This document shows positions 6,376-28,236 of a DNA stretch of 33,038 nt, in pieces. The DNA is from Candidatus Omnitrophota bacterium (GTDB taxonomy: Bacteria; Omnitrophota; Gorgyraeia; 2-01-FULL-45-10), in the NCBI GenBank assembly GCA_023247385.1, contig JAHFGO010000003.1:1-33038 (forward strand), in the 5' to 3' direction. The notes beneath the pieces are model-generated. The model saw nothing but the letters and a program-made list of their open reading frames with translations, was not told the origin of the DNA and did not search any database. The first letter of the stretch is position 1. The number at the start of each line of letters is the position of its first letter. A program made the translations under genes and the position numbers.

Positions 6376-6398
6376 ATCCACCTCTCTCACAAGTAGCG

Positions 6399-10349: not shown

Positions 10350-10862
10350 TTAATCGAATTCGCTTTTTTTCCCAAAAATGATAAGCTTCATCATTATAAA
10401 CAGCCTTGCTATCAATAAAACTATATGTCGTTTAAGATAATATCTTCCGCTTTTGAATGTGATTTGTCTATTGTTAAGCAATCTTTTAAGCCGATTGTCA
10501 ATCATCTCTTTAGCATTGTAGCGTTCGAGAATCTGCTGCATAGAAAGTCCGTCTCTAGCGTCGTATATCTCCCTTAAAATCCTGATCCTCCGCGCTGTTT
10601 CGCTTAAACATATAAAACTGAAATAACAGTAAGATAGCGACGCATAGATCAAGAGATTTACCAAAAACATAGCTATGCGGTCGGTTAGCGCCATCGCCTC
10701 AATTCTAAAAAAATAAGATTGGTATATCAACAAGCCAAATGCGCCGGCACCGACGCCGACGAAAACGGATCTCAACAAGTTGGTCTTCAAAATATATCGG
10801 AAACTTGCGATCTGGAACAGCATATTTATTATAAGACAGGCTATGGGAACGAACGCGACCAC
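10350..10862 (-). CDS. Uncharacterised small membrane protein (3-4 TM) with a winged-helix-like soluble segment; paralog of 10864..11385
   Basis: 170 aa. The GTG start at 10862 is preceded by AGGAGG with a 5-nt spacing. Three N-terminal hydrophobic helices are followed by ARRIRILREIYDARDGLSMQQILERYNAKEMIDNRLKRLLNNRQITFKSGRYYLKRH and then a hydrophobic tail IVLLIARLFIMMKLIIFG. I do not recognise the family. Confidence 0.6.
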   Translation of the reverse strand: MVAFVPIACLIINMLFQIASFRYILKTNLLRSVFVGVGAGAFGLLIYQSYFFRIEAMALTDRIAMFLVNLLIYASLSYCYFSFICLSETARRIRILREIYDARDGLSMQQILERYNAKEMIDNRLKRLLNNRQITFKSGRYYLKRHIVLLIARLFIMMKLIIFGKKSEFD

Positions 10863-10863
10863 C

Positions 10864-11385
10864 TCATCCTCCTTTCGGCATGTTTAGTATTCTACGATAA
10901 AATATAAAAACGCGTTCTGTATAATTGCCTTTTTTGGTCAATCTATAAATATCCCCACTTTTATAGACCAATCCGTCTTTCATCAAATCCATGATTCTCG
11001 TCTTTATTAACATATCGTCCGTCATCATCTTATACAACTCTTCCTTGGCCAAGCCGTGCGATCCCGCATCAGCGATGTGTTGTATAATAAGTAGGGACGG
11101 ACTGTCTGCCTCTATAGCTGGATAATTAAATATATAGAAAAGACCTAGGGAAAGATAAAGCAGCGATATGTGAAGGCATTCTAAAAGATTTTTAGGAAAA
11201 AATAAATTGATGACGAGGGTAGATCTTGATGCAATCCATAAAAGGATGAGCGACAAAATCAAATTCAATAAAAATAGACGGAACAAGCTATTCGTCGGTT
11301 GTTTCGGCGGATATATCCTCCATCTGGCGATATGGATAGTAAAGAATATGAAAAATATAAGTATGCCCCATATGAGGATTAGCAT
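10864..11385 (-). CDS. Uncharacterised small membrane protein (3 TM) with a winged-helix-like soluble segment; paralog of 10350..10862
   Basis: 173 aa. The ATG overlaps the upstream SDR stop by 7 nt. Three hydrophobic helices are followed by SPSLLIIQHIADAGSHGLAKEELYKMMTDDMLIKTRIMDLMKDGLVYKSGDIYRLTKKG. This aligns by eye with the equivalent segment of the next gene (GL...e.l......mi..R...L......fKSG.YyL.k). Confidence 0.6.
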   Translation of the reverse strand: MLILIWGILIFFIFFTIHIARWRIYPPKQPTNSLFRLFLLNLILSLILLWIASRSTLVINLFFPKNLLECLHISLLYLSLGLFYIFNYPAIEADSPSLLIIQHIADAGSHGLAKEELYKMMTDDMLIKTRIMDLMKDGLVYKSGDIYRLTKKGNYTERVFIFYRRILNMPKGG

Positions 11386-13422: not shown

Positions 13423-13434
13423 CGGGTTTATCTC

Positions 13435-14277
13435 TTAAGACAATATATCGCCTTTCTTTAATCTTGTGTCGGCATTCACTAAAATAACACCATCATTGGT
13501 GCTTATAACATATCTTCCGTCGCGAGTGACCCCCAAGACTTCCCCGGCCCTCTTTCCCGGATATGCGCGTCTAAATTGTATCCTCTCTCGATTTTTGAAA
13601 CCGAAGGCATTAGGCATCGGATCGACGAGAGCATTTATAAATCGATTCAACTGGAAGCTGGTCTTCATCCAGTCTATCCTGCTATCAGCAGGCGTTCTCT
13701 TGGCCAGATAGGTTGAAAAGCCACGTATCTGTTTCCTTCGGTATGCGCACTTATTCTCTATCTGCCGAACTGCTGTGAGTAACAATTTTTTGCCGCATGC
13801 GATCAGCCTCTTTGAGATGGTGCCATAATCATCGTCTCGCGCAAATTCGATGCTATCCTGCAGAACAATATCTCCATCATCTATATTTTCATTCATAAAA
13901 TGGACTGTGATGCCCATCTCTCTCTCGCCATTTATGATTGCCCAATTCACAGGGTGACGGCCCCTATATTTTGGTAATATTGAAGTATGTAGATTGACAG
14001 CCCCAATTTTAGGAATGCCCAATATAGACAGTTTTATTATTTCGGGGTAGGCAATAAAGATCATTAGATCAGGCTCGATCTTCTTTATTCTGCCTGCCAG
14101 AGAATGTATATCATCCGTCACAATCGTCTCTATCCCTAACCGGCCCAATGCCCTTTTAGAGATCTCGAGATAATTATGTCTATGGAGCACCAGCAATTCC
14201 GGCCTGTATCCGAACTTGCAGAGGTTCTTTACATTCTCTATAAAGGGCTCTGACGAACCTCCCATGACTATCTTCAA
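13435..14277 (-). CDS. Formyltransferase, ArnA N-terminal-domain / Fmt-like (sugar N-formyltransferase candidate)
   Basis: [48 protein letters not shown] matches remembered ArnA [45 protein letters not shown]...[10 protein letters not shown] matches ArnA RRTPDDSFLEW...AVADPWPGAF. I place the start at the TTG at 14277 (MKIVMGGS), which has GGAGGA 7 nt upstream and lies 4 nt after the upstream stop. The ORF-track start at 14304 is another TTG that overlaps the upstream gene. Confidence 0.8.
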   Translation of the reverse strand: [280 protein letters not shown]

Positions 14278-14281
14278 TGCC

Positions 14282-14971
14282 TTATCCTCCACGCAGGATA
14301 TCAAAGACGGATTTTAGAATGCCGATTATATTTTTTATTCTAAATGCCTTGGAATGGCCCTTTTTTCTATCCAATAAATATATACCTACCTCTATATAGC
14401 CATAGCCTCTTTTTAACAATTTTACGAGCGCCTCAGCCTGATAGGCAAAACTATCCGTCTTTATTGCGATGGAACTTATGATCGAAGTTTTGTGAAGGAC
14501 CATTCCATTATAATATTTCAATCTAAGGCCCGCCGCCAGATTCACCAACTGCACAAAGCCCTTTGATATGATCTGTCTCCATAAAGGCCTGGAGCGCTCG
14601 TTCAAATGAAACGGTATCACCATATCCGCTTTATTTCTTAAATCGAAAGTGTCTTCGAATGCCTTTTGCTCAACATCATTATCACCTGTGACCAACATCA
14701 GGTATTCCATTCTGGCCATCTTGATGCCAGATTTATAGACGTAACCAAGGTTCATAGGTCGAGGATGGTGCATGGCTCTTACTTTGGGGTTAGTGCGCGC
14801 TATTTCATCGACGATTTTACCGGTGTCATCCGTTGAGCCATCATTGAATATTATCATTTCATAATCCGCAAATCTTCCATCTATCGCCCGTTTTACTTTA
14901 TCGTATGTCTGAAGCAGGTTATCTTCCTCATTCAAAGCCGTTATGATGATCGATATCGTATCTCGGTTCAT
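14282..14971 (-). CDS. GT2 glycosyltransferase, Dpm1/ArnC-like catalytic domain without TM helices (paralog of 19541..20311)
   Basis: 229 aa with an ATG start. Blocks: ISIIITALNEEDNL, IIFNDGSTDDTGKIV, LVTGDNDVE, MVIPFHLNERSRPLWRQIISKGF. No hydrophobic C-terminal helices are present. It aligns by eye with the 256-aa GT2 at 19541..20311. Confidence 0.75.
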   Translation of the reverse strand: MNRDTISIIITALNEEDNLLQTYDKVKRAIDGRFADYEMIIFNDGSTDDTGKIVDEIARTNPKVRAMHHPRPMNLGYVYKSGIKMARMEYLMLVTGDNDVEQKAFEDTFDLRNKADMVIPFHLNERSRPLWRQIISKGFVQLVNLAAGLRLKYYNGMVLHKTSIISSIAIKTDSFAYQAEALVKLLKRGYGYIEVGIYLLDRKKGHSKAFRIKNIIGILKSVFDILRGG

Positions 14972-14977
14972 CTTCGT

Positions 14978-16474
14978 CTATCGTTTAAATACCATCATCG
15001 CCTCGTAGAAAAATATCTTCGCAAAAGAGCATAATATCCTAAACGCGAATTTGATTAGATAAGACCATTCCTCTATATTGAAGTACCACCTCTGGGGCAA
15101 TGCCAGCCATCCTGCGGGTCCGGTCTTCTCCTTCAGGATCTTATAGATGCTCTGCGGACGGAATGAATAATAAAGATTATATTTTAGTATGTCATGCCTG
15201 AGGTCGTCTTCCGATGCTGTGCATGGGACATACGCTAATGGATTCTCTTTGAACGGCGATTCCACAAGCGTTCCACAGGCATTCAAATTCTCCCAGTCTT
15301 TCCCAGGATTGAACCTATTTTCCTCGACTGCTATCTCGTATAATTTTGTGCCGGGATACGGCGTTGCGTTATTAAATCTCACGTAATCCAAAGACAATTC
15401 TTTCGCGAGCCTGTAAGTAGCCCTGCGCTCTTCTTTGGTCTCGGTCGGAAGCCCTAATATAAATGTGCTTGATACCTGGAGACCGTGCTTTTTAGTTAAT
15501 TTAATTCCATTTATGATCTCTTCAACCGTTTCTTTCTTATCGATCAGCTTCATCAACCTTTCTGAAGCCGTCTCTATACCGAAATGGATCGTCCGGAAAC
15601 CAGCGACCTTAAGCGTCGTTAATATATTATCATCTACGGTGTCCCCTCTTGCCTGACAATCAAATATTGCCTTTTTATGAAAACCTTTTGCAATTATCCT
15701 CTCGCATAGATCCATGACCCTTTCTTTCTTCATCAGAAAAGAATCATCCGCGAATGTTATATATGTCCGTTTATATTTGTTTACCAATTCATCCAAACTC
15801 TCCATGACAACTTCCGAAGAGAAGAATCTATACCTTCTGCCTGATATGCTTCTCTGGCTGCAGAACATGCAATCGTAAGGACACCCTCTGGAGCTTGCGA
15901 CAAATCCCAACTCATATCGATCCTGATGGTGATCGAATAGATGATAGGGAAATCTTGGGATCTTGGTTAAATCCGGCAGGGTTGCATCTGAATTATGAAT
16001 GACGCAACCGTCTTTACGAAAGGAAATGCCCTTTATATCATCATATGTCCTATTATTTTTTATTCTTTCATATAATAGATTCAGTGTCTCCTCGCCCTCG
16101 CCGCGAACTACTATATCCACATCCTCATCCTTTAAAACGTCGTTGGGCATAACGGTAGGATGTATGTTTCCGAATATCACTATGCTATGGGGGTATCGTT
16201 TCTTTATAAGGCCCGCCAATTCAAGACCTCTTGCGATTCCAGCGGTCAAACAAGAAAAGCCAAAAATATATGGACGTTCAAATAATCTCGTGCATTCATC
16301 AAGTAGTGGTTCAGATACGCAGACTATCTCCTCATCTAATATCTTGACTCTTCTACCATGTTTAACTAGATAGCCAGCAAGATAACCTATTCCTATCGGA
16401 ACGCTTATGGGCACATATTTTGAGAATCCGCCTAACTTCTGTTTACGATTATAAGCCGGGCTAATGAATATCAT
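14978..16474 (-). CDS. B12-binding-domain radical SAM protein (class B type)
   Basis: 498 aa with an ATG start. The CxxxCxxC motif occurs in ASSRGCPYDCMFCSQ. The N-terminal cobalamin-binding-type region reads IVIFGNIHPTVMPND...VRGEGEETLNLL. Its architecture matches that of 4001..5431. Confidence 0.8.
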   Translation of the reverse strand: MIFISPAYNRKQKLGGFSKYVPISVPIGIGYLAGYLVKHGRRVKILDEEIVCVSEPLLDECTRLFERPYIFGFSCLTAGIARGLELAGLIKKRYPHSIVIFGNIHPTVMPNDVLKDEDVDIVVRGEGEETLNLLYERIKNNRTYDDIKGISFRKDGCVIHNSDATLPDLTKIPRFPYHLFDHHQDRYELGFVASSRGCPYDCMFCSQRSISGRRYRFFSSEVVMESLDELVNKYKRTYITFADDSFLMKKERVMDLCERIIAKGFHKKAIFDCQARGDTVDDNILTTLKVAGFRTIHFGIETASERLMKLIDKKETVEEIINGIKLTKKHGLQVSSTFILGLPTETKEERRATYRLAKELSLDYVRFNNATPYPGTKLYEIAVEENRFNPGKDWENLNACGTLVESPFKENPLAYVPCTASEDDLRHDILKYNLYYSFRPQSIYKILKEKTGPAGWLALPQRWYFNIEEWSYLIKFAFRILCSFAKIFFYEAMMVFKR

Positions 16475-17417: not shown

Positions 17418-18440
17418 TTATCTTAATAATTTTAAATAGGAATTCGGATTCAATAAAATATTCTCGATCATGTTGCAGTCGTGCGTGCAAAAACAATCGC
17501 CCTTCCTAACAGACGAGATAGCTCGTTTCATTTCCGCGCTATTTAATAATCCTTCCAAAGTTTTTTCCCGGATGTTTCCGATTGAGGACAGAAGCTCGCA
17601 GATAGATACGCTACCTTCGGGCCATATCACTAGATGAGAGATGCCGGCCCGACATAGAACAGGCTGCCGCCTGACTTCCAGCGCCTTCATCGTCAGTTCC
17701 CTCTTGTATGCCTGGTAATTCCTTTGGACTCTTAAAAGAATTCCCCTCCGTCCATAATCATAGGAGCGCTGAATGCGATAGATATCGCTCTCCAGCATCT
17801 TCATTCGTTCTACGGATGGCAACCGCATTGAAGGGTCGCGGCTTACGCCTCTTAGCATAAGGATAGAGTGGAAAGCAGGTCTCAATCCTCTCACGAAATG
17901 CATCAAATCTATTATCTCCTCGACATTTTTCTCGCAGAGCACCGTATTGAACTTTATCCTCATCCCATTAATCTCTTTCAACCTATTAAAAGTCTGAATG
18001 GTTCTCTCAAAGGACATGGGACATCTTATCTCATCATGCGTCCTCTGCATCCCGTCCAGCGAAAGAGTAACGATAAGTTTTCCGTCCGTATTCAGATGGA
18101 TTTTTTTAAGCATCTTCACGATCCGGTTGGTATCCCATCCATTAGTCGGTATTGACAGCTCTTTAAAATCGAACAGGGAGACTATCTCCTCAAGGTCATC
18201 CCGCAATGTTGGCTCGCCTCCGCCTATATCCAACCATATGAGATCGGAAAACTTTTTGGAAATTGTCCCGATCTCGTTGAGCGTCAACTCCTGCACTGCT
18301 TTATCTATATCGACAAAGCAGTGTCTGCATCTCATATTGCATCTGTTGGTAATATGAAGGATGAGGTGCTTAATGCTGGGTCTGAAATAAGAGAGCATTG
18401 TCTCTTTCAGCACTTTTGTGATAACGGATATGTTTTTCAT
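17418..18440 (-). CDS. Radical SAM protein with a SPASM/twitch-like C-terminal cysteine cluster
   Basis: The CxxxCxxC motif occurs in HITNRCNMRCRHCF, followed by the GGGEPTLRDD SAM-binding block. The C-terminal cysteines are CRAGISHLVIWPEGSVSIC...GDCFCTHDC. I place the start at the ATG at 18440 (MKNISV), which forms an ATGA overlap with the upstream stop. The ORF-track start at 18512 would overlap the upstream gene by 76 nt. Confidence 0.8.
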   Translation of the reverse strand: MKNISVITKVLKETMLSYFRPSIKHLILHITNRCNMRCRHCFVDIDKAVQELTLNEIGTISKKFSDLIWLDIGGGEPTLRDDLEEIVSLFDFKELSIPTNGWDTNRIVKMLKKIHLNTDGKLIVTLSLDGMQRTHDEIRCPMSFERTIQTFNRLKEINGMRIKFNTVLCEKNVEEIIDLMHFVRGLRPAFHSILMLRGVSRDPSMRLPSVERMKMLESDIYRIQRSYDYGRRGILLRVQRNYQAYKRELTMKALEVRRQPVLCRAGISHLVIWPEGSVSICELLSSIGNIREKTLEGLLNSAEMKRAISSVRKGDCFCTHDCNMIENILLNPNSYLKLLR

Positions 18441-19540
18441 ACAAAATTTATATGCATAGGTCTGGCACCTTTTGACCGTTTGAGAACGGCCTTCCCCTGT
18501 TTCAAATCCCAAAGAAATTCATTCACTTTATGCTGAAGACACAAGGTGCCGCACATGGTTCTCGGGTCGAACGAACTGGACGCGATATGATGCATGACCT
18601 CCCAGTATAATTTGCTTTTCCATATCTCTTTAAAAGGCTTATCTGCTATATTGCCGATATGGAATCTTTTATATTTTTTGTTAAATAGCATGCCGCATGG
18701 CGCAACCAACCCTGAGCCTGACATCTGCAAGATAAATGGTGGGCCATAACATTGCGAATATCTCCGCCTGCCGCCGCTTAAAATCTTAGACCATTTGACT
18801 TTTACCAAATATCCTTCGTGTGAATATCGCTCAGCCTCTCTCAAAATATCTGATAATTTAAAATACTGAGAATAATCGACTTTTAAACTCCCGGTTTCGT
18901 CATCGCTGCAATGCTTGATAACGGCGTAGTCGACGCCAAGCTCCTTACCGAGTTTGGCAAATGGAACGACCTGATCAGCGTATTGAGGCATCAATACCAT
19001 CTGTATCCCTAAGCTGACAGGAAGACTCTTTTCCTTTTTTATCCGCGCACATTCTTTTATAGTGCGGCATACTTTATGAAAGCAGTCCTCCTTGCATCCC
19101 ATGATTTCAGCATAGCGTGTCGGTTCTGCTGCTGATATATTGAATCTAAGATAGGTAAGGTTGGGCAACACCTCTTCCAGTCTATCACCAGTCAACAAAT
19201 AACCGTTCGTCCCTAATGCCATATCAAGACCGTTTGCCTTGCCTCTTAAAATTGCATCGTATAAATAAGGAGAGCATGTGCTTTCTCCGTCGCTGACAAA
19301 ACTGACGGCCCTGACCCCTATTTCAGCAGCATCATCGAGGAACCTGAATATTACGTCCCTCGTCATCTTCTTCTCGTCGTTGGCCTGCAGCTGCCCGTAA
19401 CAATATATGCATCTATAAGTGCACCGCCTCGTCAGAGCGCAATCGATTGTTATAGGCGCTATCCTCTCACCCCTTAGCCACGCTTCTATTCTGTCCTTAT
19501 GCCAGACCACTTTTTGACCGTCGAGGATCAGCTCCGCCAT
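18437..19540 (-). CDS. Radical SAM protein with a C-terminal auxiliary Cys region (paralog of 22341..23408)
   Basis: 367 aa. The ATG abuts the upstream stop (TAAATG). The CxxxCxxC motif occurs in ALTRRCTYRCIYCYG, followed by the SDGEST block. The C-terminal cysteines are QCYGPPFILQMSGSGLVAPCG and MCGTLCLQHKVNEFLWDL...HINFV. It aligns along its full length by eye with 22341..23408. Confidence 0.8.
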   Translation of the reverse strand: MAELILDGQKVVWHKDRIEAWLRGERIAPITIDCALTRRCTYRCIYCYGQLQANDEKKMTRDVIFRFLDDAAEIGVRAVSFVSDGESTCSPYLYDAILRGKANGLDMALGTNGYLLTGDRLEEVLPNLTYLRFNISAAEPTRYAEIMGCKEDCFHKVCRTIKECARIKKEKSLPVSLGIQMVLMPQYADQVVPFAKLGKELGVDYAVIKHCSDDETGSLKVDYSQYFKLSDILREAERYSHEGYLVKVKWSKILSGGRRRYSQCYGPPFILQMSGSGLVAPCGMLFNKKYKRFHIGNIADKPFKEIWKSKLYWEVMHHIASSSFDPRTMCGTLCLQHKVNEFLWDLKQGKAVLKRSKGARPMHINFV

Positions 19541-20311
19541 TTATAAATCTCCTCGCCGCCTAATAGCCGTAGAAGAATCGTCTGAGTAACGAATCTCGGC
19601 GTCTTTCTTATTCCTGAAATAAAAATCTTTCACTAGATGCAGATATCCATTTATCACATTTAACAAAGACGGGAATGTGACTGCTTTCGAAGGGCCGTGC
19701 CCTCTCGATCCAACCCGATACGGCACCTCGGCAAAAAGATATCCTTTCTTTACGGCCCTTATCAATATATCGGTTTGAAAGAAAAATCCGTTTGACCTGT
19801 AGTCCATCTCCTTTAATATGGATTTTCGATAAAGATTAGTTCCGTTGGTGTAATTGAAATTTACCAGAAAGCTGGTGTTGACAATGAATCGATAGACGAG
19901 AGAAAGCACGTTTCTGAAAAGAGGCCTTGCCGCTTTATTAAATATGAATGGTATGACTATATCTACCTGTTCAAGTAGTTTGTAATAGCGGAATATCTCA
20001 TTGGGATCGTTCTCGTTATCGCCGGGAAGCATCACTATGATATCTCCGAAGGCGCTATCAAGGCCATCCCAAAACGATGTGCCGACGCCTTTAGGCATCT
20101 CGTGGATGACCATCCGTATTCGACGATCGACTTTTGCCGCATCCCTCACCACCGTCTCTGTGTTATCGCTGCTTCCGTCATTTATGACTATGACCTCGCC
20201 ATTGATATCAAACCTACGAAAAGCATCCAGTGCATTTTTGATGGCGTCCGCAATATTCTTTTCTTCATTGAGTGCCGGCATAATAACCGACACCTCGACC
20301 TTATTTTGCAT
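19541..20311 (-). CDS. GT2 glycosyltransferase, Dpm1/ArnC-like catalytic domain without TM helices (paralog of 14282..14971)
   Basis: 256 aa with an ATG start. Blocks: VSVIMPALNEEKNI, VIVINDGSSDNTETVV, MLPGDNENDP, IVIPFIFNKAARPLFRNVLSLVY. There is no C-terminal membrane helix. Confidence 0.75.
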   Translation of the reverse strand: MQNKVEVSVIMPALNEEKNIADAIKNALDAFRRFDINGEVIVINDGSSDNTETVVRDAAKVDRRIRMVIHEMPKGVGTSFWDGLDSAFGDIIVMLPGDNENDPNEIFRYYKLLEQVDIVIPFIFNKAARPLFRNVLSLVYRFIVNTSFLVNFNYTNGTNLYRKSILKEMDYRSNGFFFQTDILIRAVKKGYLFAEVPYRVGSRGHGPSKAVTFPSLLNVINGYLHLVKDFYFRNKKDAEIRYSDDSSTAIRRRGDL

Positions 20312-21344
20312 GGATAGCTCTCTTCACGCTTGCCATAATCTCTTCCTTGCCCGGATAATATGCCTCTTCGAGAACTGGGCTGGCCGGCGTAGGCGTATCG
20401 GGCAAGCAGACTATCTCTACGGGAGCCTTCAAACAGGAAAAGGCCTTCTCGTAAACGACTGCCGCTATATGGGAGCCGAGACCTCCGGTCTTACAACCAA
20501 CATCAGCGATGACGAGCCTTCCCGTCTTTCTTAAAGAATCGAGTATCAACTCTTCATCCAATGGCTTTATTGTCCTAGGATCTACGATCTCAATATCTAT
20601 ATTCTCAGATTGCAAGGAATCCGCTGCTTTTATTGCCTCGTATACCATCTGCGAGACCGCGACCACAGTTACGTCTTTACCCTGCCTCCTTACGATACCT
20701 TTACCAACAGGAACCTTATAAACATCTGGCGGAACGTATCCAATATAATCATATACCCACCTATGTTCGATAAATATAACGGGGTTGGCGTCTTCCACTG
20801 CCGATATCAAAAGGCCTTTTGCATCATAAGGTGTAGAAGGCATAACTACCTTCAGGCCCGGAATATGGACAAATAGAGAATGCAATGCCTGAGAGTGTTG
20901 TGCAGCCGATCCCCACCCCCTCCCGATAATGCTTCTTATAACAATGGGCACATTTACCCTGCCTCCTGTCATATAATTCCATTTCGCGGCATGATTTATT
21001 ATCTGATCCATGGCCATCAGGAGAAAATCCATCCTCATGTGCACAAATATCGGCCTCATACCGCATATGGCAGCGCCTATCGCTATTCCTGTCAAAGCGT
21101 TCTCTGCTACAGGTATATCCATAACCCTGTCTTTGCCGAACTCTTTAGCTAGCCCAGCCGTGGTTCCAAATATTCCGCCTGAATCATTGACACCCTCTCC
21201 CAGTATGAAAATCCGCTTATCCTTCTTGAGCAGTGCGGATTGCGTCTCCCTTAGCGCTTCGCGATAGGTGATGCCGCGTAGGCCGTCTCTGGCAAGGGTA
21301 TTCTCAAAATCGTCTTTATTTATATATACTCTAGTCCAAGGCAT
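20301..21344 (-). CDS. ThDP-dependent 2-oxoacid dehydrogenase E1 component, beta subunit-like (transketolase Pyr and C-terminal domains)
   Basis: Blocks: ITYREALRETQSALLKKDKRIFILGEGV, VMDIPVAENALTGIAIGAAICGMRPIF, SPYDAKGLL-type PSTPYDAKGLLISAVED. I place the start at the ATG at 21344 (MPWTRV), with AGGA 7 nt upstream. The ORF-track start at 21413 adds 23 residues and a long overlap with the alpha gene. Confidence 0.8.
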   Translation of the reverse strand: MPWTRVYINKDDFENTLARDGLRGITYREALRETQSALLKKDKRIFILGEGVNDSGGIFGTTAGLAKEFGKDRVMDIPVAENALTGIAIGAAICGMRPIFVHMRMDFLLMAMDQIINHAAKWNYMTGGRVNVPIVIRSIIGRGWGSAAQHSQALHSLFVHIPGLKVVMPSTPYDAKGLLISAVEDANPVIFIEHRWVYDYIGYVPPDVYKVPVGKGIVRRQGKDVTVVAVSQMVYEAIKAADSLQSENIDIEIVDPRTIKPLDEELILDSLRKTGRLVIADVGCKTGGLGSHIAAVVYEKAFSCLKAPVEIVCLPDTPTPASPVLEEAYYPGKEEIMASVKRAIHAK

Positions 21345-22326
21345 CTTTTGATCCTGCATAATAAACGTCGTCGTACAATTCTTCTTTTGCGGGAAATGGG
21401 CTCTTTTGCGCAAATCTTACTGCATCTTCTATTTCGCAATCGACGGCTTTAACCATCTCTTCTATCCCGCTTTGGTTAATGATTTTGTTCTTAAATAGAT
21501 ATTTTTTATACGATTCCAGAGGGCATCTCTTCATCCAATCGTATAGCTCTTTCTCAGGCCGGCATCCTTTCTCATAATCGCATTCCGGCCCCACGTGCCC
21601 TTTCCATCTGTATGTTCTGCATTCGATCAATGTTGGACCCTTTCCAGCCCTTATCCTTTCGATGGCCTTCTTCGCCGACTTATATATACCGAGCACATCG
21701 TTCCCATCAACTTGAATACCGGGGATATCGTATCCCTGTGCTCTCCTGGCTATATCATCATGTGGTTGCCGGACCGCTATATGGGAGTTGGTAGCATAAA
21801 AATTATTCTCACAGACAAAGACGACAGGAAGTTTTTTGAGCGAGGCGAAATTCATGCTTTCATGAAATGTGCCTTCATCGACAGCGCCATCCCCAAAGAA
21901 GGCAACAGCTATTTTCTTCTGGCCGTTCATTTTTATAGCCAGCGCCGCACCCGTCGCCAAGGCTATACCGCTGCCGACTATCGCCGAGGTCCCTAATATT
22001 CCAACCTCTGGACTTACCAGATGCATCGACCCGCCCTTGCCGCTTGAGCAGCCACTCGACTTGCCGTAAAGTTCGGCCATTAAAAATCTAATACTTGCGC
22101 CTTTGGCAATATAATGCCCGTGATTTCTGTGCGTGCTGAAGATGATGTCTTCTTTGCACAAGAGAGCGCATACGCCGGCCGCTATGGCTTCTTGTCCAAT
22201 ATATAGATGAACTGGCGTCTTCATATCCTGTGACGGATAAAGCTCCGTTACCTTCTCTTCAAAACGCCGGATCTTGAGCATCGTATAAAATAACTGTTTT
22301 TTTACCGCGGCTTGGATCTTATTCAA
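21331..22326 (-). CDS. ThDP-dependent 2-oxoacid dehydrogenase E1 component, alpha subunit-like
   Basis: The ThDP-binding motif is GDGAVDEGTFHESMNFASLKKLPVVFVCENNFYA (GDG...NN). The N-terminal block YTMLKIRRFEEKV and HLYIGQEAIAAG are also present. I place the start at the TTG at 22326 (MNKIQAAV), 10 nt after AGGAGG and downstream of the upstream TAG stop. The ORF-track start at 22383 is also a TTG but overlaps the upstream gene by 43 nt. Confidence 0.8.
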   Translation of the reverse strand: MNKIQAAVKKQLFYTMLKIRRFEEKVTELYPSQDMKTPVHLYIGQEAIAAGVCALLCKEDIIFSTHRNHGHYIAKGASIRFLMAELYGKSSGCSSGKGGSMHLVSPEVGILGTSAIVGSGIALATGAALAIKMNGQKKIAVAFFGDGAVDEGTFHESMNFASLKKLPVVFVCENNFYATNSHIAVRQPHDDIARRAQGYDIPGIQVDGNDVLGIYKSAKKAIERIRAGKGPTLIECRTYRWKGHVGPECDYEKGCRPEKELYDWMKRCPLESYKKYLFKNKIINQSGIEEMVKAVDCEIEDAVRFAQKSPFPAKEELYDDVYYAGSKDALD

Positions 22327-22340
22327 GATCGCATGCCCTC

Positions 22341-23408
22341 CTAAATAAAATTGACGTGTTCCGGAGGATGTCTCAATTCCCAAAGATACCTGTTTATCTC
22401 ATCCATCCTGCAGTTAACCCTGCACCTATTGGCATCAAGCTTATTTCCAGCCATATTTGCTATCTTCTTTCTTCTCGGCCCGTTCCAGATTTTCTTAAAA
22501 CTATTTTTATAAATGTTTCCGTAAATAAACGACCCATCTCCCAAATATGCACTACACCCCCAAATGTTTCCTCCGGCATCGATATAGCTCCAGAAAGGAA
22601 GGGCATAACAATGCCTGTAATTTCGCTCTGCTTCATCCCATTTCTTCATGGTCTTGACGCGGAAGACGATATTAAATTTTTCATCATTCAGAGCATTCAA
22701 CTCATCTGTTAAATACAGGTACTTGCTGTAACTTATATTCTTGTATTTGCTCGTCTTGCTAAACGGATGGTGTGAATAAGGCTTCACGACCAGATAATCC
22801 ATCCCTAGGGCCTTTGCCTTCTTCGCCAGAAGCACAACCTCGCCGGCGTTTTCATCTAGTAGTAAAAGCTGCATACCAAGAGCACATTCATACTTTTTCG
22901 CCCTTTTTACGCCGACGGCATATGAGAGGTTTTCCATCACTTTGTCGAAATCGTCCGCATTTGCATTATGTATCTTTGCATATCTATCTCGGGTGGCACC
23001 GTTTATGCTCACCTTGATCCAAGAGGTGCTGCCAAGCATCTTATTGATTAGTTCTTTTTTCAATAAGACGCCGTTTGTCGTTAGGGCAACATCAATACCA
23101 AGCCTTTTCGTATAATTGATTATATCCGCTATATCCTTATGAAGCAACGGTTCCCCTTCTCCTGCATACATGATGCTCTTTATGCCTAATCCAGCCATCT
23201 CACACAGCTGCTCTTTCAGTAAAGCGGTGTCGAGAAAGATCGGTCTATATTCCAAAAAATCCAGTGCGCAGAAGGTGCAGCGGTGGTTGCATCCTCCCGA
23301 AGGCGCTATCTCAAGATATATAGGATAAACGGCATTGCCTTTCAGCCAGTCATTAACACGCTCCACATGATAAATCAATTTGTGGCTGTCTATCTTAAAT
23401 TTATCCAT
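22341..23408 (-). CDS. Radical SAM protein with a C-terminal auxiliary Cys region (paralog of 18437..19540)
   Basis: 355 aa. The ATG overlaps the upstream stop by 8 nt. The CxxxCxxC motif occurs in APSGGCNHRCTFCAL, followed by the GEGEPLL block. The C-terminal cysteines are HCYALPFWSYIDAGGNIWGCS and RCRVNCRMDEINRYLWEL...HVNFI. Confidence 0.8.
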   Translation of the reverse strand: MDKFKIDSHKLIYHVERVNDWLKGNAVYPIYLEIAPSGGCNHRCTFCALDFLEYRPIFLDTALLKEQLCEMAGLGIKSIMYAGEGEPLLHKDIADIINYTKRLGIDVALTTNGVLLKKELINKMLGSTSWIKVSINGATRDRYAKIHNANADDFDKVMENLSYAVGVKRAKKYECALGMQLLLLDENAGEVVLLAKKAKALGMDYLVVKPYSHHPFSKTSKYKNISYSKYLYLTDELNALNDEKFNIVFRVKTMKKWDEAERNYRHCYALPFWSYIDAGGNIWGCSAYLGDGSFIYGNIYKNSFKKIWNGPRRKKIANMAGNKLDANRCRVNCRMDEINRYLWELRHPPEHVNFI

Positions 23409-23970
23409 TGCGCCCCTTCTTCTCTACCACCCTGTCCACTATGCAGTGGCATACGACAAGATGTGCTATCTCCACATAGCCGTAAGAATGGGACGGCACA
23501 TAGAAATTGATATCACCTATGCCTCTCAACGGATTATTCGGTTTAAATCCGGACATCGTCACTGCGAGGCATTTATTATTCATTGCCCTCGATGCTGCCT
23601 TCAGGATATTTGTGGATGCCCCTGAGCTCGATATAGCAAATAAGATATCACCGGCGCTGGATAACATCTCAACGGGTTTCTCGAAGACATGTTCATAGCC
23701 GAGGTCGTTGGACAGGCAGGTGAGAAGGCTTGCGTCATTGAATGCGATCGCTGGAACATCAGCGTTCTTCAAAAAATCGGTCGATATGTGGCTTGCAATT
23801 GAGGCGCTGCCGCCGTTTCCGATGAAGATTATCTTGTTCGTTCTTCTATCGAGGCTAGCGATTAAACCTGTTATCTTAGATATCGCCTTATCTAATGGCA
23901 TGGTTCTTCTCTTGCCGTCGGTAACTTCTATATTGAGCAAAATATTTTTCAACTGATTAAAATAATTCAT
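23401..23970 (-). CDS. gmhA: SIS-domain sugar-phosphate isomerase, GmhA-like (sedoheptulose-7-phosphate isomerase family)
   Basis: 189 aa with an ATG start. Three blocks line up with remembered E. coli GmhA: IFIGNGGSASIASHISTDF (GmhA CGNGGSHCDAMHFAEE), AFNDASLLTCLSNDLGYEHVF ([20 protein letters not shown]) and GDILFAISSSGASTNILKA (GDVLLGISTSGNSANVIKA). Confidence 0.65.
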   Translation of the reverse strand: MNYFNQLKNILLNIEVTDGKRRTMPLDKAISKITGLIASLDRRTNKIIFIGNGGSASIASHISTDFLKNADVPAIAFNDASLLTCLSNDLGYEHVFEKPVEMLSSAGDILFAISSSGASTNILKAASRAMNNKCLAVTMSGFKPNNPLRGIGDINFYVPSHSYGYVEIAHLVVCHCIVDRVVEKKGRNG

Positions 23971-23972
23971 AT

Positions 23973-25514
23973 TTATTTAAGAAGGGTTGTCACATATTTA
24001 TGCAGGGCCACCGGCTCTACGGACGAACGATTTCCTACGATCAAGACCTTCATCGCTCCTGCAGCATTTCCGATGAAACCCACGATATCGATCGGGATGT
24101 CTTTATATACACAGGGCGAGGTTATAGAAAAATACGCATCGCCAGCACCAATCCTATCCACCACCTCCTTGGAGAATACCGGTATCTCGATAAAACCGTC
24201 TTCCTTAGAATAGGCGAGGGCCCCTTTATGCCCGCGGGTGATTATTATCTTCTCGCAGGCGAGCCTCCTACTTATCTTAACGATCAGTTTTTCAAGATTG
24301 GAGACCCTGTCATGGCAGGCAAGCCTGATCTCCGGCTCATCGATACATATATAATCTGCCCTTGGGAATTTTGTGACGACGTTGAAGCCGAAGTTAGCGC
24401 TGTTCGTCTGAACATTTACCGCTAAGTATTTCGATTTCTTGCAAAGGATTTTTAATACCCTATCGGTTATCAGGCCGTGGCCAAAGTCGGCAACCATGAC
24501 CATATCGAACTCATTGAGGCGGGTTTTCAGATAATCGCAGATCTCGTCCTCTATTGTCCTTGGCAGAGGCATGCCGTCCGACAGATAGCATATCTCAAAT
24601 AATTTGTTCAAGAAACTGGGATCGACGAACCTGCGCTTCACCACTACAGGTGCATCGCCTCTGTAGTAAAAATTGCTCCTGACATTCCCTTTCAGGTGTT
24701 TGGGGATGAAATTCCTGTAATCATTGATTGTGCCGATACAGCTTAGCAGCGTGACATCCTTGCAAAATCCAGCCACGTGATTTGCCGCCGCCAGCACCCC
24801 GCCTGCGAAGATCTCTTCGTTCATGAACCTTGTTGCGATGATGTTGTCTTTCTGCGCTTTCCCCATCCCTATGCAATAGTGGTATTCATCTATGATTATG
24901 TCTCCGATAAGCAGGATCTTCACATCCTTGATTCCGTCGAGATGCCTGGTTATATCTCTCGAGGTGTAGCGGTTTTTAAATCTAATAAAAAAATCCTGGG
25001 CCTCTTTGGGATATGGGGCAAAATAACTGTTTATGAGAGCGGAGGAGCTGAATGATATCTCATCGGTAAAATGGAGGAAACCGCCTACTGACTTGACCGC
25101 CTCTTCCTCTTCGTAAATCCTTCCAGTGATATCCTCTCCCCTATTGGCGTAATCACTGCCTTTGACATAGAAATGGGGCTTCAATACCTCTATCGTCTTC
25201 ACAGCTGTGGGCCATTCATTGACCGCCACGAAGTCAACACATTCCATGGCAGCTATACTCTCTGCGCGTAAATTTTGATTAAATACAGGCCTGCCGGGCC
25301 CTTTATTCACATATTCGTCTTTTGTCACAGTAACAACCAATACATCCCCTTTCTGCTTTGCCGCTTCAAAGTGTTTTATATGACCCGGATGAAGCAGGTC
25401 GAATACGCCGTGACAATGAACTATCCTCTTGCCCTTTTTTCTTAAACCTTCCAGGATATCACCAAGCTTCTCAATAGTTTTAATTTTTGAGTAAGAATCT
25501 TGTCTCATCTTCAT
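23973..25514 (-). CDS. Bifunctional HldE/RfaE-like protein with inverted domain order: N-terminal cytidylyltransferase-fold nucleotidyltransferase, C-terminal PfkB sugar kinase
   Basis: 513 aa. The ATG forms an ATGA overlap with the upstream stop. The N-terminal region IVHCHGVFDLLHPGHIKHFEAAKQKGDVLVVTVTKDEYV carries the HxGH nucleotidyltransferase motif. The C-terminal region ILLIGDIIIDEYHY...FAGGVLAAANHVAGF...DRIGAGDAYFS...GNAAGAMKV carries the PfkB/ribokinase signatures. Confidence 0.7.
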   Translation of the reverse strand: MKMRQDSYSKIKTIEKLGDILEGLRKKGKRIVHCHGVFDLLHPGHIKHFEAAKQKGDVLVVTVTKDEYVNKGPGRPVFNQNLRAESIAAMECVDFVAVNEWPTAVKTIEVLKPHFYVKGSDYANRGEDITGRIYEEEEAVKSVGGFLHFTDEISFSSSALINSYFAPYPKEAQDFFIRFKNRYTSRDITRHLDGIKDVKILLIGDIIIDEYHYCIGMGKAQKDNIIATRFMNEEIFAGGVLAAANHVAGFCKDVTLLSCIGTINDYRNFIPKHLKGNVRSNFYYRGDAPVVVKRRFVDPSFLNKLFEICYLSDGMPLPRTIEDEICDYLKTRLNEFDMVMVADFGHGLITDRVLKILCKKSKYLAVNVQTNSANFGFNVVTKFPRADYICIDEPEIRLACHDRVSNLEKLIVKISRRLACEKIIITRGHKGALAYSKEDGFIEIPVFSKEVVDRIGAGDAYFSITSPCVYKDIPIDIVGFIGNAAGAMKVLIVGNRSSVEPVALHKYVTTLLK

Positions 25515-26506
25515 TTAGAAAGGTATTGAAACCATTCCTTCGTAGCTTCTCTGATCTTTTCAGGTGTCCATACCGGAGCGCTTCTCCAGTATTCGATCTT
25601 ATCAAGAATCGTTTTAACGCCTTCTTCAAAGGCAACCTTAGGAACCCAACCCAATATCCGCTTTATCTTAGCGATGTGGGCATGAGTGCGGTCCGGCTCT
25701 CCCGGCCTCTTCGGAATATGGACAATGTCACCGCCTAAAAGCTTCGTCAAATAATTGATGCTGTAAGTATTTCCTGATCCGACGTTCATCGTCTCCTGGT
25801 CGCACGTGGATTCAGCAGCCATTAAAAATGCGTTTACCGCATCCGTCACATAGACAAAATCTCTTGTCTGGGTGCCGTCGCCAACAACGGTGAACGGCTT
25901 ATTATTGAGTTTCTGAGCCAAAAATACCCCGAATACGGCGCCATAGGTACCTGATGTCCGCGAGCGCGGGCCGTACACATTAAATAGCCTTAAAGAGATG
26001 ACAGGCAATTTATATACCTGCCCCCAGTGAAGGATCGTCTCTTCTCCCAGATATTTCGTCAGCGCATATGGGTACTGAGGCTTGATGGGGGCTGTTTCCG
26101 CTGTGGGATAAACGTCCGGTATGCCATAGCAAGACGACGATGCAGCGTAAACAAGCCTATCGACTCCGGCTAATCGCGATGCCTCAGCCACACACATGGT
26201 ACCGATGACATTGGAGTTATAATAGATAGATGGATTCACAATAGACGGAACTATATCTGCTAAGGCGGCAATATGAAATACTACGTCGATGCCTTTAAAA
26301 TGCGCCTTTATCTTATCCAGATGAGATATATCCTCTTTGACAATGGTAAGATTTACATTATCCTTCTGATGCGCCAGATTCTCAAGGTTCCCAGTCGAGT
26401 AATTATCTATCACGGTAACCAAATGGCCTTTCTCCAACAACGCATCAACTAAATGGCTGCCGATAAATCCAGCCCCTCCAGTAACCAAACATCTCTCTCC
26501 TCTCAT
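25511..26506 (-). CDS. NAD-dependent NDP-sugar epimerase/dehydratase (extended SDR, WbpP / UDP-hexose 4-epimerase-like)
   Basis: 331 aa. The ATG forms an ATGA overlap with the upstream stop. Motifs: VTGGAGFIGSHL, ASSSCYG...YALTKYLGE (S/Y/K triad), LRLFNVYGPRS, VGDGTQTRDFVYVTD. Confidence 0.8.
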   Translation of the reverse strand: MRGERCLVTGGAGFIGSHLVDALLEKGHLVTVIDNYSTGNLENLAHQKDNVNLTIVKEDISHLDKIKAHFKGIDVVFHIAALADIVPSIVNPSIYYNSNVIGTMCVAEASRLAGVDRLVYAASSSCYGIPDVYPTAETAPIKPQYPYALTKYLGEETILHWGQVYKLPVISLRLFNVYGPRSRTSGTYGAVFGVFLAQKLNNKPFTVVGDGTQTRDFVYVTDAVNAFLMAAESTCDQETMNVGSGNTYSINYLTKLLGGDIVHIPKRPGEPDRTHAHIAKIKRILGWVPKVAFEEGVKTILDKIEYWRSAPVWTPEKIREATKEWFQYLSK

Positions 26507-28236
26507 CTCTCCACCCCTTGAAAAACCAACTCTTTAAGTTTATACCTAAGAGGATACTCACCTGGCGGAGGCAGGATAGGAAAATCCTTATGCAAAAGGT
26601 CCTTATAAGAAATATCCGGATAGTGAGTTAGTATCTCGCCGTTGACAAAGAGCTCGTTATCGCGATACCGCACAACAATAAATTCTTTCGGATCGAGCAT
26701 CTCCTCCCCCAAATTTGTAATCCTCTGACAGGTGGATGGCTTTTCGTCCCCAGATCTTCTTAACAACTCCCATTCCCCGAGAGCAATAGCTTTATATTTA
26801 AGAAATCGAACCGGGTCTTTTGAGTCGGTATACAATACATTAAGCGAAAACTCAAGGCTGTGGAACGATCTCACGCCTGAATTTTTTAGCGGTGTGTCAT
26901 CGATAGCGTCAATCAAAAATGTCGCATTCGGCGGAAGGCTTGGAAATCGCATGGTAAAAGCATTCCAGAATTTCTTTTCGCTATCCCATGCCTTGAAGTA
27001 TAGGTCTATATTGATATTATTGAACAAAACTCCCGCCGCTAAACAAAATGCTATAAATAAATTCATCCATCTCGATCTAATGCTGGGTGCATAGAAAATA
27101 CAATATAGAAAATAGATCAGCCCACCTATGAGAACAGCGTCACCAAACTGCAGGATTATACCGTGCCTATTCTGAAAACCGATGCCGGGTGCGCGGTCCG
27201 TGTATAAATATAGCAATATAGGGGGTATTAAAAGAACGGCGGCTAAAATAAAAATATCCCGCGTTGAAATCCATGCCGCCTTTAAGGATAATCGAACTGG
27301 CTTAAATATATCGGCTCTATTCAGTAGATATAAGCATAGAAAGAACGCAACCAGCCCTAATGACATTGACCATGATGTTGAATAGCGAAAGATGATCCCG
27401 TTCTTCAAATATGAAATCCAGTGATATGACATAAGCATCGCCAAAAGGAATAGGATTTTTCTTCCGTCGAGGAAAAAGCGCACATCTTGCGCATATATAC
27501 CGGAGCAAACGCCGAAAGGTTTATAGGCCATCTTATAGAAGCTTATAGGTAGACACAGCAGAAAGAATGGAAACCATGTCATCAGGGTTTTGTTTAGTAA
27601 AGCTTTATGGCCGAGCGGCTTTTTGGAAAGTATATACCAGATAAAAAAAAGCCTGGCCGGTTCCAGCGCAACGGCCCCTTCAATTAAAACATAATGGGAG
27701 ATGCCGGATAGAATAAGAGCGATTGTCAAGAAAACCCATCTCGCGTCGCGCGCCAGTGCCCTTTCGGTAAGATAAAATGATATTATCGTAAACATGACCC
27801 CCAGACGATATGGCAGGTTGCCATAAAATGGCAATGCGGTATGAATAGGAAAAATTATGAATGCAATAGCCGCAAAGAATGCAAAAAAACGTTTAGTTTT
27901 GAACAGGTTGTTCAATAATGTATAAAGATAAACGGATGAGACGATCTGTATAAAAATGCTTGCGGAATTCCATAGAGGATAAGCGTAGTCGATCTTCTTG
28001 TGAAGCGAATAAAAATAGTATTGAAATATGCCAAGAGGTACTCTCCTAAGCTGCGTAAACCCCATGTCGAGAAATTGCTTCAATCTGCCGGTTGAATATG
28101 CAGATAGGATCCAGCAATTATCGTCCCAGAAGATATCCCGCAGGAACCATAATCGTGCGACGCTAAGGATCCCTACCACAATTATCAGTGGCAAAAAGAA
28201 ATTTCTATCTCTATCACAATAGCGTTCTTCTGCCAT
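26503..28236 (-). CDS. Uncharacterised polytopic membrane protein with a C-terminal soluble domain (tandem paralog B); possible GT-C-type glycosyltransferase or polymerase
   Basis: 577 aa. The ATG shares one base with the upstream stop (TAATG). There are about 11-13 hydrophobic segments. The first loop after TM1 carries RDIFWDDNCWILSAYSTG. A roughly 150-aa non-hydrophobic C-terminus follows (AWDSEKKFWNAF...DPKEFIVVRYRDNELFVNGEIL). I do not recognise the family. Confidence 0.5.
   Translation of the reverse strand: MAEERYCDRDRNFFLPLIIVVGILSVARLWFLRDIFWDDNCWILSAYSTGRLKQFLDMGFTQLRRVPLGIFQYYFYSLHKKIDYAYPLWNSASIFIQIVSSVYLYTLLNNLFKTKRFFAFFAAIAFIIFPIHTALPFYGNLPYRLGVMFTIISFYLTERALARDARWVFLTIALILSGISHYVLIEGAVALEPARLFFIWYILSKKPLGHKALLNKTLMTWFPFFLLCLPISFYKMAYKPFGVCSGIYAQDVRFFLDGRKILFLLAMLMSYHWISYLKNGIIFRYSTSWSMSLGLVAFFLCLYLLNRADIFKPVRLSLKAAWISTRDIFILAAVLLIPPILLYLYTDRAPGIGFQNRHGIILQFGDAVLIGGLIYFLYCIFYAPSIRSRWMNLFIAFCLAAGVLFNNINIDLYFKAWDSEKKFWNAFTMRFPSLPPNATFLIDAIDDTPLKNSGVRSFHSLEFSLNVLYTDSKDPVRFLKYKAIALGEWELLRRSGDEKPSTCQRITNLGEEMLDPKEFIVVRYRDNELFVNGEILTHYPDISYKDLLHKDFPILPPPGEYPLRYKLKELVFQGVER

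Follow-up and report, generated by a model that had tools for sequence, protein, structure and literature searches.

What does an E1 component of the 2-oxoacid dehydrogenase type do among glycan-biosynthesis genes, with neither the E2 nor the E3 component of such a complex encoded beside it? This question is raised by two overlapping genes for E1 alpha- and E1 beta-like subunits, dependent on thiamine diphosphate (ThDP), from a Candidatus Omnitrophota bacterium. The stretch of DNA analyzed, called the window from here on, comprises positions 1 to 33,038 of contig JAHFGO010000003.1 (assembly GCA_023247385.1), a metagenome contig of 168,720 bp. All substantial open reading frames (ORFs) of the window lie on the minus strand (29 minus-strand ORFs) and form one long glycan-biosynthesis cluster. 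The earlier note on this DNA had described the pair as flanked upstream by a radical SAM gene (rSAM1) and downstream by a Dpm1-like glycosyltransferase gene (GT2) and a second, paralogous radical SAM gene (rSAM2). All of these neighbors were identified by their Pfam domains, and the two radical SAM proteins proved to be full-length paralogs with 27% identity (E 3e-48; Table 1). The comparative evidence lends good support to the view that the pair would act independently of E2 and in a sugar pathway. On balance, and with some reservation, we favor the reading that it is an α2β2-type ThDP carboligase of a sugar-modification pathway, of the kind named αKADH2, and not part of a 2-oxoacid dehydrogenase complex.

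No lipoyl, E2 catalytic or E3 domain of Pfam was detected in the 29 ORFs. Five E2 and E3 proteins (E. coli AceF and Lpd, the E2 of Desulfotalea, the E2 and LpdA of Enterococcus) were used as tblastn queries and gave no match at E <= 1e-3 in the window and 80 related loci, together 1,295,422 bases. These loci were obtained by a scan of one genome per species, and their alpha subunits are 45–69% identical to that of the window. A regular-expression scan for the E2 motif DHRxxDG and the disulfide motifs of E3 also returned nothing; this crude scan was replaced by tblastn and phmmer with real E2 and E3 proteins. The claim that 33 kb contain no E2 or E3 gene was thus borne out by Pfam domains and tblastn. 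Neither were such genes found just outside the window, where the genes called within 10 kb beyond each end are further glycan genes. Plasmid records yielded E1 pairs with 41–48% identity; for comparison, E2-linked ones were taken from the records of Enterococcus, Staphylococcus, Priestia, Brevibacillus, Aminobacter, Agrobacterium and Desulfotalea. According to their annotation the E2 gene adjoins the E1 pair in all seven of these references, and usually the E3 gene does so, too.

The E1 alpha protein matched Pfam E1_dh with 263 bits (E 3.6e-78), and E1 beta matched Transket_pyr with 132 bits and Transketolase_C with 136 bits. The pair therefore consists of two subunits of the E1_dh and transketolase type and does not have the single-chain TPP_enzyme N/M/C architecture; a match to TPP_enzyme_C was weak and partial (31.6 bits). 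The ThDP motif reported before, GDG-x26-NN, was read directly from the E1 alpha translation (residues 145–147 and 174–175). The catalytic His244 of the alpha subunit is conserved in 81/81 clade members, and the cofactor Glu81 and His150 of the beta subunit in 80/80 each. Pfam found neither an iron-sulfur nor a flavin domain in the pair. Two cysteines of the alpha loop (GPECDYEKGC) were considered as a metal site; this was ruled out, with the cysteines conserved in only 25/81 and 35/81 sequences, respectively. Against the NCBIfam equivalog model for the E1 alpha subunit of pyruvate dehydrogenase (PDH), TIGR03182, E1 alpha scored 349.6, below the cut-off of 393.85, and against TIGR03181 it scored 236.3 (cut-off 411.35). 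E1 beta passed only the looser subfamily model NF006667 (352.8 > 321).

The mechanically derived ORFs overestimate both genes. For E1 alpha (ORF 22383..21331) the likely true start is an in-frame TTG at position 22326, because the sequence AGGAGG lies 9-10 nt and the stop codon of the upstream gene 14 nt before it. E1 beta (ORF 21413..20301) likely starts at an ATG at position 21344. The gene calls of the source contig concur with both starts (331 and 347 amino acids). The overlap of the two genes noted earlier is consequently real, but the 83 nt suggested by the mechanical ORFs shrink to 14 nt. E1 beta in turn shares its last 11 nt with GT2.

A neighbor-joining tree was calculated from concatenated alpha and beta sequences (85 taxa, 641 columns), which were built from the frames of tblastn hits with fragments left out. 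The window pair and 77 other E2-less pairs were split from the seven E2-adjacent plasmid pairs with a bootstrap support of 97/100; the same split received 54 and 63 with single subunits. The window pair is 39–48% identical to the E2-linked pairs, and the nearest E2-linked relatives include acetoin-cleaving systems. Tight clustering with housekeeping PDH or acetoin dehydrogenase E1 was not seen. By this placement the pair belongs to a separate E2-less clade outside the E2-adjacent reference pairs of the PDH and acetoin dehydrogenase type.

The clade carries its own signature in the beta subunit. Columns were compared with eight E2-linked sequences, namely the seven plasmid references plus one PDB chain for each subunit. 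The motif GEDV of the E2-linked sequences (Asp in 8/8) is replaced by GEGV in the E2-less clade (Gly51 in the window; Gly in 79/80). Position 102 is His in 78/80 clade members (His102 in the window) and Ile, Leu or Phe in the E2-linked sequences, and position 104 is Arg in 80/80 (Arg104) and Phe in 7/8, respectively. A clean, clade-specific charge reversal was observed at position 306, which is Lys or Arg in 76/80 clade members (Lys306 in the window) and Asp or Glu in 8/8 E2-linked sequences. This column corresponds to Glu286 of the Geobacillus stearothermophilus beta subunit (3duf numbering). The acidic residue may be among those through which G. stearothermophilus E1 (1W85-family structures) contacts the subunit-binding domain of E2, although a literature search gave no residue-level confirmation. 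The charge reversal is therefore no proof that E2 binding was lost. In the alpha subunit the loop after the catalytic His is longer and reads W-K/R-G-H-V-G-P-x-x-D, whereas that of E2-linked proteins is shorter and of different sequence. Arg104 and His102 are located in the Pyr domain and would lie next to the Phe that lines the cofactor pocket of homologs. A positively charged pocket would favor acceptors that are anionic, be they phosphorylated or nucleotide-linked, over lipoamide.

The 80 related loci span Planctomycetota, Desulfobacterota, Nitrospirota, Omnitrophota, Patescibacteria, Elusimicrobiota, Chloroflexota, cyanobacteria and one archaeon. Of these loci, 75 contain sugar or radical SAM genes, and the core order rSAM–E1α–E1β–GT2–rSAM recurs across many phyla. 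Of the 69 loci with enough sequence, 36 have a radical SAM/SPASM gene immediately upstream of E1 alpha, and a GT2 gene is found immediately downstream of E1 beta in 34/72. This downstream GT2 gene is followed by a radical SAM/SPASM gene in 21 loci and by a B12-radical SAM gene in 10. The link to heptose-type activation genes that had been proposed for the window recurred as well: HldE-like genes co-occur in 23, SIS genes in 14 and GT9 genes (heptosyltransferase family) in 18 of the 80 loci. Further conserved neighbors besides GT9 are Bac_transf, DUF2079 membrane proteins, small radical SAM proteins and methyltransferases.

Variants of the cassette were also found. An alternative order is HldE–SIS–SDR–DegT–DegT–E1a–E1b (SDR, short-chain dehydrogenase/reductase), and a minimal variant, E1a–E1b–DegT, occurs in loci without any radical SAM gene. 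In many members of the clade a 10-kb surrounding contains DegT aminotransferase genes, while SIS and HldE genes are absent from it. The DegT proteins next to E1 pairs keep the Lys that binds pyridoxal phosphate in 24/24 cases, which ruled out reading the paired DegT genes upstream of E1 as ColD/E1-type dehydratases dependent on pyridoxamine phosphate (PMP). Azospirillum oryzae KACC 14407 is a cultured carrier; its locus on plasmid NZ_CP054615.1 (positions 208642-219589, L091; E1 pair at 212576-214625) has the order SDR–SDR–PfkB–SIS–SDR–E1a–E1b–DegT–DegT–hypothetical–radical SAM. On plasmid pSGRIFU1 of Streptomyces griseofuscus (L085, 8992-14522) an E2-less E1 pair adjoins genes for a 1103-amino-acid nonribosomal peptide synthetase condensation-domain protein, an acyl carrier protein and a phosphopantetheinyl transferase. 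The clade may also feed two-carbon (C2) units to carrier-protein pathways.

Gene fusions tie E1 beta, GT2 and rSAM2 to one process. In a cassette of Patescibacteria (L092, GCA_035506195.1) with the order SDR–HldE-like–SIS–rSAM–E1a–[E1b-GT2]–rSAM, E1 beta and GT2 form a single ORF of 608 codons without internal stop (8178-10004). The same combination of Transket_pyr, Transketolase_C and Glycos_transf_2 was found in 13 protein clusters (P0391-P0403), 63–100% identical and encoded on contigs of up to 196 kb. Thus, the fusion is evolutionarily maintained and not an assembly error. In another protein, P0172, GT2 is fused to rSAM2. Among representatives at 50% identity, GT2 relatives are joined to SDR, B12-radical SAM, cytidylyltransferase or methyltransferase domains, in one protein to a radical SAM domain, or to a GtrA/DPMS membrane domain. 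The fusions also support a role of GT2 as a polyprenyl-phosphate glycosyltransferase. The scan of the 80 loci for fusions revealed none; they surfaced through the protein database only. The public name of the 608-amino-acid fusion, "pyruvate dehydrogenase complex E1 component subunit beta", is probably a misannotation.

The PDB sequence matches of rSAM1 were weak and comprised MoaA, BlsE, viperin and DesII, while the best match of rSAM2 was DesII (TDP-4-amino-4,6-dideoxy-D-glucose deaminase). An AlphaFold2 model of rSAM2, moderately reliable with a mean predicted local distance difference test score of 72.5, also had DesII as its best fold match (E 2.6e-14, template modeling score 0.61), followed by SuiB, anSME, SkfB, PqqE, BlsE and viperins. 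DesII, BlsE, viperin and MoaA act on nucleoside-linked substrates, and the product of DesII is a keto-sugar. Identity to DesII is only 17–19%, however, and the window proteins differ from it in being about 100 residues shorter and in their four conserved C-terminal cysteines. Both rSAM1 and rSAM2 retain these cysteines together with the CxxxCxxC motif, which is compatible with one auxiliary cluster. Relatives of rSAM2 with 74–80% identity make up more than 120 protein clusters of Omnitrophota, Patescibacteria, Auribacterota and others, annotated throughout as "radical SAM protein" only. This conservation is far above that of the E1 subunits (45–70%).

The best NCBIfam matches of GT2 were ArnC, AglJ, PpgS and dolichyl-phosphate hexose transferase, and none of them reached its cut-off. 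It resembles the ArnC/DPM1/GtrB enzymes and the Arn pathway in these matches, and the cluster also holds an ArnT-like PMT_2 protein and a trio resembling ArnB, the formyltransferase of ArnA and ArnC. In contrast to ArnC, DPM1 and GtrB, it is a protein of 256 amino acids with no predicted transmembrane segment that scores far under the equivalog cut-offs. One GT2 relative carries the GtrA/DPMS transmembrane domain, and the acceptor of GT2 is presumably a lipid.

Upstream of rSAM1 follow the SIS gene, the HldE-like gene and an extended SDR gene (SDR3). The SIS protein scored 100.9 against the gmhA model TIGR00441, below the cut-off of 209. In the HldE-like protein CTP_transf_like (residues 35-161) precedes PfkB (354-498), the opposite of the order in E. 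coli HldE, and the matches to rfaE domains II and I were both under the cut-offs. The best PDB matches of SDR3 were UDP-glucose 4-epimerases, UDP-glucuronate decarboxylases and 4,6-dehydratases; copies 59–72% identical head the cassette in nine loci, L009, L010, L036, L063, L048, L067 and L076 being among them.

Two small membrane proteins and a B12-binding radical SAM enzyme accompany the cassette elsewhere. Copies of the latter, 52–56% identical, were found in six cassette loci (L013, L023, L029, L034, L040, L047). In the same six loci the gene hyp173 directly follows rSAM2, and hyp170 does so in five of them (not in L047); in the window both genes are about 7 kb away. Neither protein gave a Pfam match, and their soluble tails had faint winged-helix hits. 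They could be membrane anchors or flippase-like partners of a GT2 that has no transmembrane segment.

In the pathway that we propose the SIS isomerase and the kinase/nucleotidyltransferase would provide a nucleotide-activated, heptose-like sugar, on which SDR3 and/or the upstream DesII-like rSAM1 would generate a carbonyl group. The E1 pair would convert pyruvate to hydroxyethylidene-ThDP and place the C2 unit on the sugar carbonyl, which would yield a branched or chain-extended C-acetyl sugar. The Dpm1/ArnC-like GT2 would transfer this sugar to polyprenyl phosphate, the DesII-like rSAM2 would modify it again, and a membrane glycosyltransferase of the cluster (PMT_2 or two 577-amino-acid paralogs described below) would deliver it to a cell-envelope acceptor. 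Because of the gene order and of the sequence matches to DesII and BlsE, rSAM1 probably acts before E1 and makes the keto acceptor. The sugar-pathway proposal of the earlier note is partly supported, namely with respect to E2 independence and the role in sugar modification; we would amend it in so far as it assigned to the radical SAM enzymes only the processing of the E1 product.

A more far-reaching interpretation is possible, although we regard it as rather doubtful in its entirety. By a route not described so far, the module rSAM1–E1α–E1β–GT2–rSAM2, with an optional head of SDR, nucleotidyltransferase/kinase and SIS, would produce a higher sugar that is lipid-linked and either C2-branched or C2-extended. 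It would be spread among Patescibacteria, Omnitrophota, Nitrospirota, Desulfobacterota and Planctomycetota, mostly lineages of anoxic habitats. The keto-sugar would be generated and remodeled by DesII-like radical SAM enzymes in place of NAD- or PMP-dependent ones, and the ThDP enzyme, GT2 and rSAM2 would form one membrane assembly. An rSAM–E1–GT2–rSAM cassette was not met in literature searches that combined radical SAM, thiamine, heptose and E1 in O-antigen clusters.

As stated in the earlier note, there is a real precedent for PDH-E1-like pairs that branch deoxysugars. E2-less E1 alpha/beta pairs which add a pyruvate-derived C2 branch to keto-sugars are an established kind, αKADH2 (PMC12247030; PMC4802897; PMC4753412). 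The pairs AviB1/AviB2 (avilamycin), Plm8/Plm9, identical with Pau11/Pau12 (paulomycin), and those of aldgamycin and kosinostatin are proposed and genetically supported, the ketone of the branch may be reduced, methylated, oxidized or transaminated, and such an E2-less pair is said to be present in about 120 gene clusters (PMC12247030; PMC4802897; PMC4753412). KbDH-α/β (kibdelomycin) was assayed in vitro on simplified ketones including sugar analogs (PMC12247030). E2-less C2-branching pairs are thus known as a kind; the novelty lies in the fusions, the conservation of the cassette and its distribution over uncultured phyla.

Like the αKADH2 systems the window has separate E1 alpha and beta genes among sugar-nucleotide genes and no E2 or E3. 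Some variants of the cassette also share with them a downstream aminotransferase, as in kibdelomycin, where the branch is transaminated (PMC12247030). The order E1a–E1b–DegT fits a transamination of the branch, since this is the fate of the kibdelomycin branch ketone and the DegT proteins keep their Lys. The known cases, however, belong to secondary-metabolite deoxysugar pathways of aerobic actinomycetes, whereas the window pair belongs to cell-envelope glycan clusters of mostly uncultured bacteria of many phyla. Unlike them, it lies between two DesII-like radical SAM paralogs, and in the environmental pairs a polyprenyl-phosphate-type GT2 comes next, at times as a fusion, while heptose-type activation genes frequently lie ahead. 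With the E1 of acetoin dehydrogenase and PDH (AcoA/AcoB, PdhA/PdhB; acetoin:dichlorophenolindophenol oxidoreductase) the pair shares fold and domains, 39–48% identity, the ThDP motif, the cofactor Glu and both catalytic His. It differs from these enzymes in its separate clade, the lack of nearby E2 and E3 genes, the beta signature and the longer alpha loop. The branching enzymes known from Gram-negative lipopolysaccharide are of the unrelated single-chain YerE type (PMC9306805). The chemistry proposed here, transfer of a 2-oxoacid-derived acyl anion equivalent to a nucleotide keto-sugar, resembles that of YerE and ErwE in lipopolysaccharide pathways (PMC9306805). YerE itself is a single-chain member of the decarboxylase/acetohydroxyacid synthase superfamily, in contrast to the E1_dh and transketolase-type Pyr and C-terminal families of the window pair.

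Four other functions of the pair have to be weighed. The main rival, in our opinion unlikely, is chain building in the manner of transketolase or DXS, in which pyruvate, hydroxypyruvate or a ketose phosphate would donate a C2 unit to an aldose phosphate or sugar aldehyde. A higher-carbon sugar would thereby be built or lengthened, in place of a branch on a ring ketone. It would agree with the SIS and kinase/nucleotidyltransferase genes of ketose/aldose-phosphate type in 14-23 of the 80 loci, and aldehydes are chemically easier acceptors than ketones. The invariant Arg104 and His102 of the beta subunit could also bind phosphate, as transketolase has its phosphate-binding residues in the same Pyr domain. 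Yet the DegT genes of the many clade members that have no SIS or HldE gene nearby are of the nucleotide keto-sugar type, E1 beta is fused to a nucleotide-sugar-using GT2 and not to a sugar-phosphate enzyme, and the known E2-less sugar pairs branch ring ketones (PMC12247030). Less probable still is a non-oxidative decarboxylase of a sugar-derived 2-oxo acid, for example an ulosonic acid, or an acyloin lyase that splits an alpha-hydroxyketone of the sugar in the manner of acetoin-cleaving E1, neither of which would make a C–C bond. The acetoin-cleaving systems among the nearest E2-linked relatives could be taken in this sense, as could a gene for CTP_transf_3 (CMP-ulosonic acid synthetase-like) that lies 6-8 kb upstream of the window, and phosphonate pathways are known to combine a ThDP decarboxylase with a subsequent aminotransferase. 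The CTP_transf_3 gene, however, lies outside the conserved cassette, no ulosonic-acid synthase is conserved beside the pair, and acetoin-type cleavage needs an acetyl acceptor, E2 being absent from the searched loci.

An ordinary PDH or acetoin dehydrogenase E1 which uses E2 and E3 encoded elsewhere and sits in a glycan cluster by chance is very improbable and largely refuted. Although relatives are publicly annotated as "pyruvate dehydrogenase E1 component", E1 beta passes NF006667, identity to the E2-linked pairs reaches the values given above and most of the source genome lay beyond the E2/E3 search, the sugar and radical SAM neighborhood persists in 75/80 loci of many phyla, and the 1.3 Mb searched contained neither E2 nor E3. 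The well-supported separate clade, the alpha score under the PDH equivalog cut-off, the charge reversal at a position acidic in every E2-linked sequence and the fusion of beta to a glycosyltransferase in 13 clusters argue against it as well. Hardly to be expected at all is a role as electron source, with pyruvate oxidation on ThDP feeding the iron-sulfur clusters of the radical SAM enzymes within a complex. Hydroxyethyl-ThDP can reduce iron-sulfur clusters in pyruvate:ferredoxin oxidoreductase, and the tight linkage to two radical SAM genes and the fusion chains E1beta-GT2 and GT2-rSAM2 would suit such a complex. But the pair has no iron-sulfur or flavin domain, the cysteines of its alpha loop are not conserved, and clade members without a radical SAM gene exist, e.g., in the E1a–E1b–DegT loci.

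The carboligase reading has weaknesses of its own. The environmental clade is known from sequences, and its proposed kinship with AviB1/B2, Pau11/12 and KbDH is drawn from gene content and context. The tree was made by neighbor-joining with a small E2-linked reference set of seven plasmid pairs, and the search for E2 and E3 in the source genome covered the window and 10 kb beyond each end, with the other ~115 kb of the contig and the remaining genome outside it. A sugar other than a heptose is conceivable, given that the SIS and HldE-like proteins score under the heptose-specific cut-offs, and no GmhB-type phosphatase was found in the cassette. Finally, the S. griseofuscus pair, the only actinomycete clade member found, has no sugar genes beside it, so that the clade is not exclusively sugar-related.

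If the carboligase reading is true, C2 branching or extension by E2-free E1 pairs would be widespread in the cell-envelope glycans of uncultured bacteria, beyond the antibiotics of actinomycetes. Annotation of these proteins as pyruvate or acetoin dehydrogenase E1, including those of Patescibacteria, would lead metabolic reconstructions to credit genomes with a PDH which they most likely lack. The cassette also defines a very strongly conserved radical SAM family and a glycosyltransferase repeatedly fused to sugar-tailoring enzymes. With the cultured A. oryzae KACC 14407, which carries a variant of the locus on a plasmid, the question can be approached experimentally by genetics and glycan analysis.

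Table 1: Genes of the E1 cassette and associated genes in the window.
Feature	Position	Strand	Length, domains and location
rSAM1, radical SAM/SPASM enzyme	22341..23408	-	Radical_SAM + SPASM domains; adjoins E1 alpha upstream
E1 alpha-like ThDP subunit	21331..22326	-	331 amino acids; Pfam E1_dh
E1 beta-like subunit	20301..21344	-	347 amino acids; Transket_pyr + Transketolase_C
GT2, Dpm1/ArnC-like, putative polyprenyl-phosphate glycosyltransferase	19541..20311	-	256 amino acids; Pfam GT2
rSAM2, radical SAM/SPASM enzyme, paralog of rSAM1	18437..19540	-	downstream of GT2
SIS-domain isomerase, GmhA-like	23401..23970	-	SIS_2 domain
HldE-like bifunctional enzyme, swapped domain order	23973..25514	-	CTP_transf_like + PfkB
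SDR3, extended SDR (epimerase, dehydratase or 4-oxidase type)	25511..26506	-	Pfam Epimerase, 201 bits
B12-binding radical SAM enzyme	14978..16474	-	B12-binding + Radical_SAM domains
hyp173 and hyp170, two small membrane proteins	10350..11385	-	173 and 170 amino acids; 3-4 N-terminal transmembrane segments each + soluble tail

The genes within 10 kb past one window end encode a GT4 (MraY/WecA type), Wzy_C, GT9, a B12-radical SAM enzyme and six GT2s. Past the other end methyltransferases, a radical SAM/SPASM enzyme, a CTP_transf_3-aminotransferase fusion, a 2-hydroxyacid dehydrogenase, an SDR and a cyclase are encoded. Within the window two tandem genes (26503-28236 and 28236-29969) encode paralogs of 577 amino acids that are 70% identical and have at least seven predicted transmembrane segments. 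Pfam gave no match to them; a relaxed threshold, applied to all five membrane or unassigned proteins, and a PDB sequence search with the first paralog gave nothing usable. The two proteins may represent an undescribed family of membrane glycosyltransferases or polymerases.

A row of genes for a B12-radical SAM enzyme, a GT2, a GNAT-domain protein and a polysaccharide deacetylase was observed at positions 4001-8368. It presumably resembles the HpnI/HpnJ/HpnK set that builds the cyclitol ether of hopanoids; hopanoid genes were not seen here. A third radical SAM/SPASM gene of another family (17418-18512) had ACGX-system radical SAM proteins, NirJ2 and MoaA as its best NCBIfam matches. The mechanical ORF of this gene and the end of rSAM2 have 76 nt in common, and a relative was found in only one of the 80 loci (L016, 46%). 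Finally, the segments 2741-3991 and 12316-14971 hold an Arn-like module of a DegT aminotransferase, a formyltransferase (N and C domains) and an ArnC-like GT2, and an ArnT-like PMT_2 membrane protein is encoded elsewhere in the same cluster. Together they suggest a second lipid-linked amino-sugar branch in the same locus.

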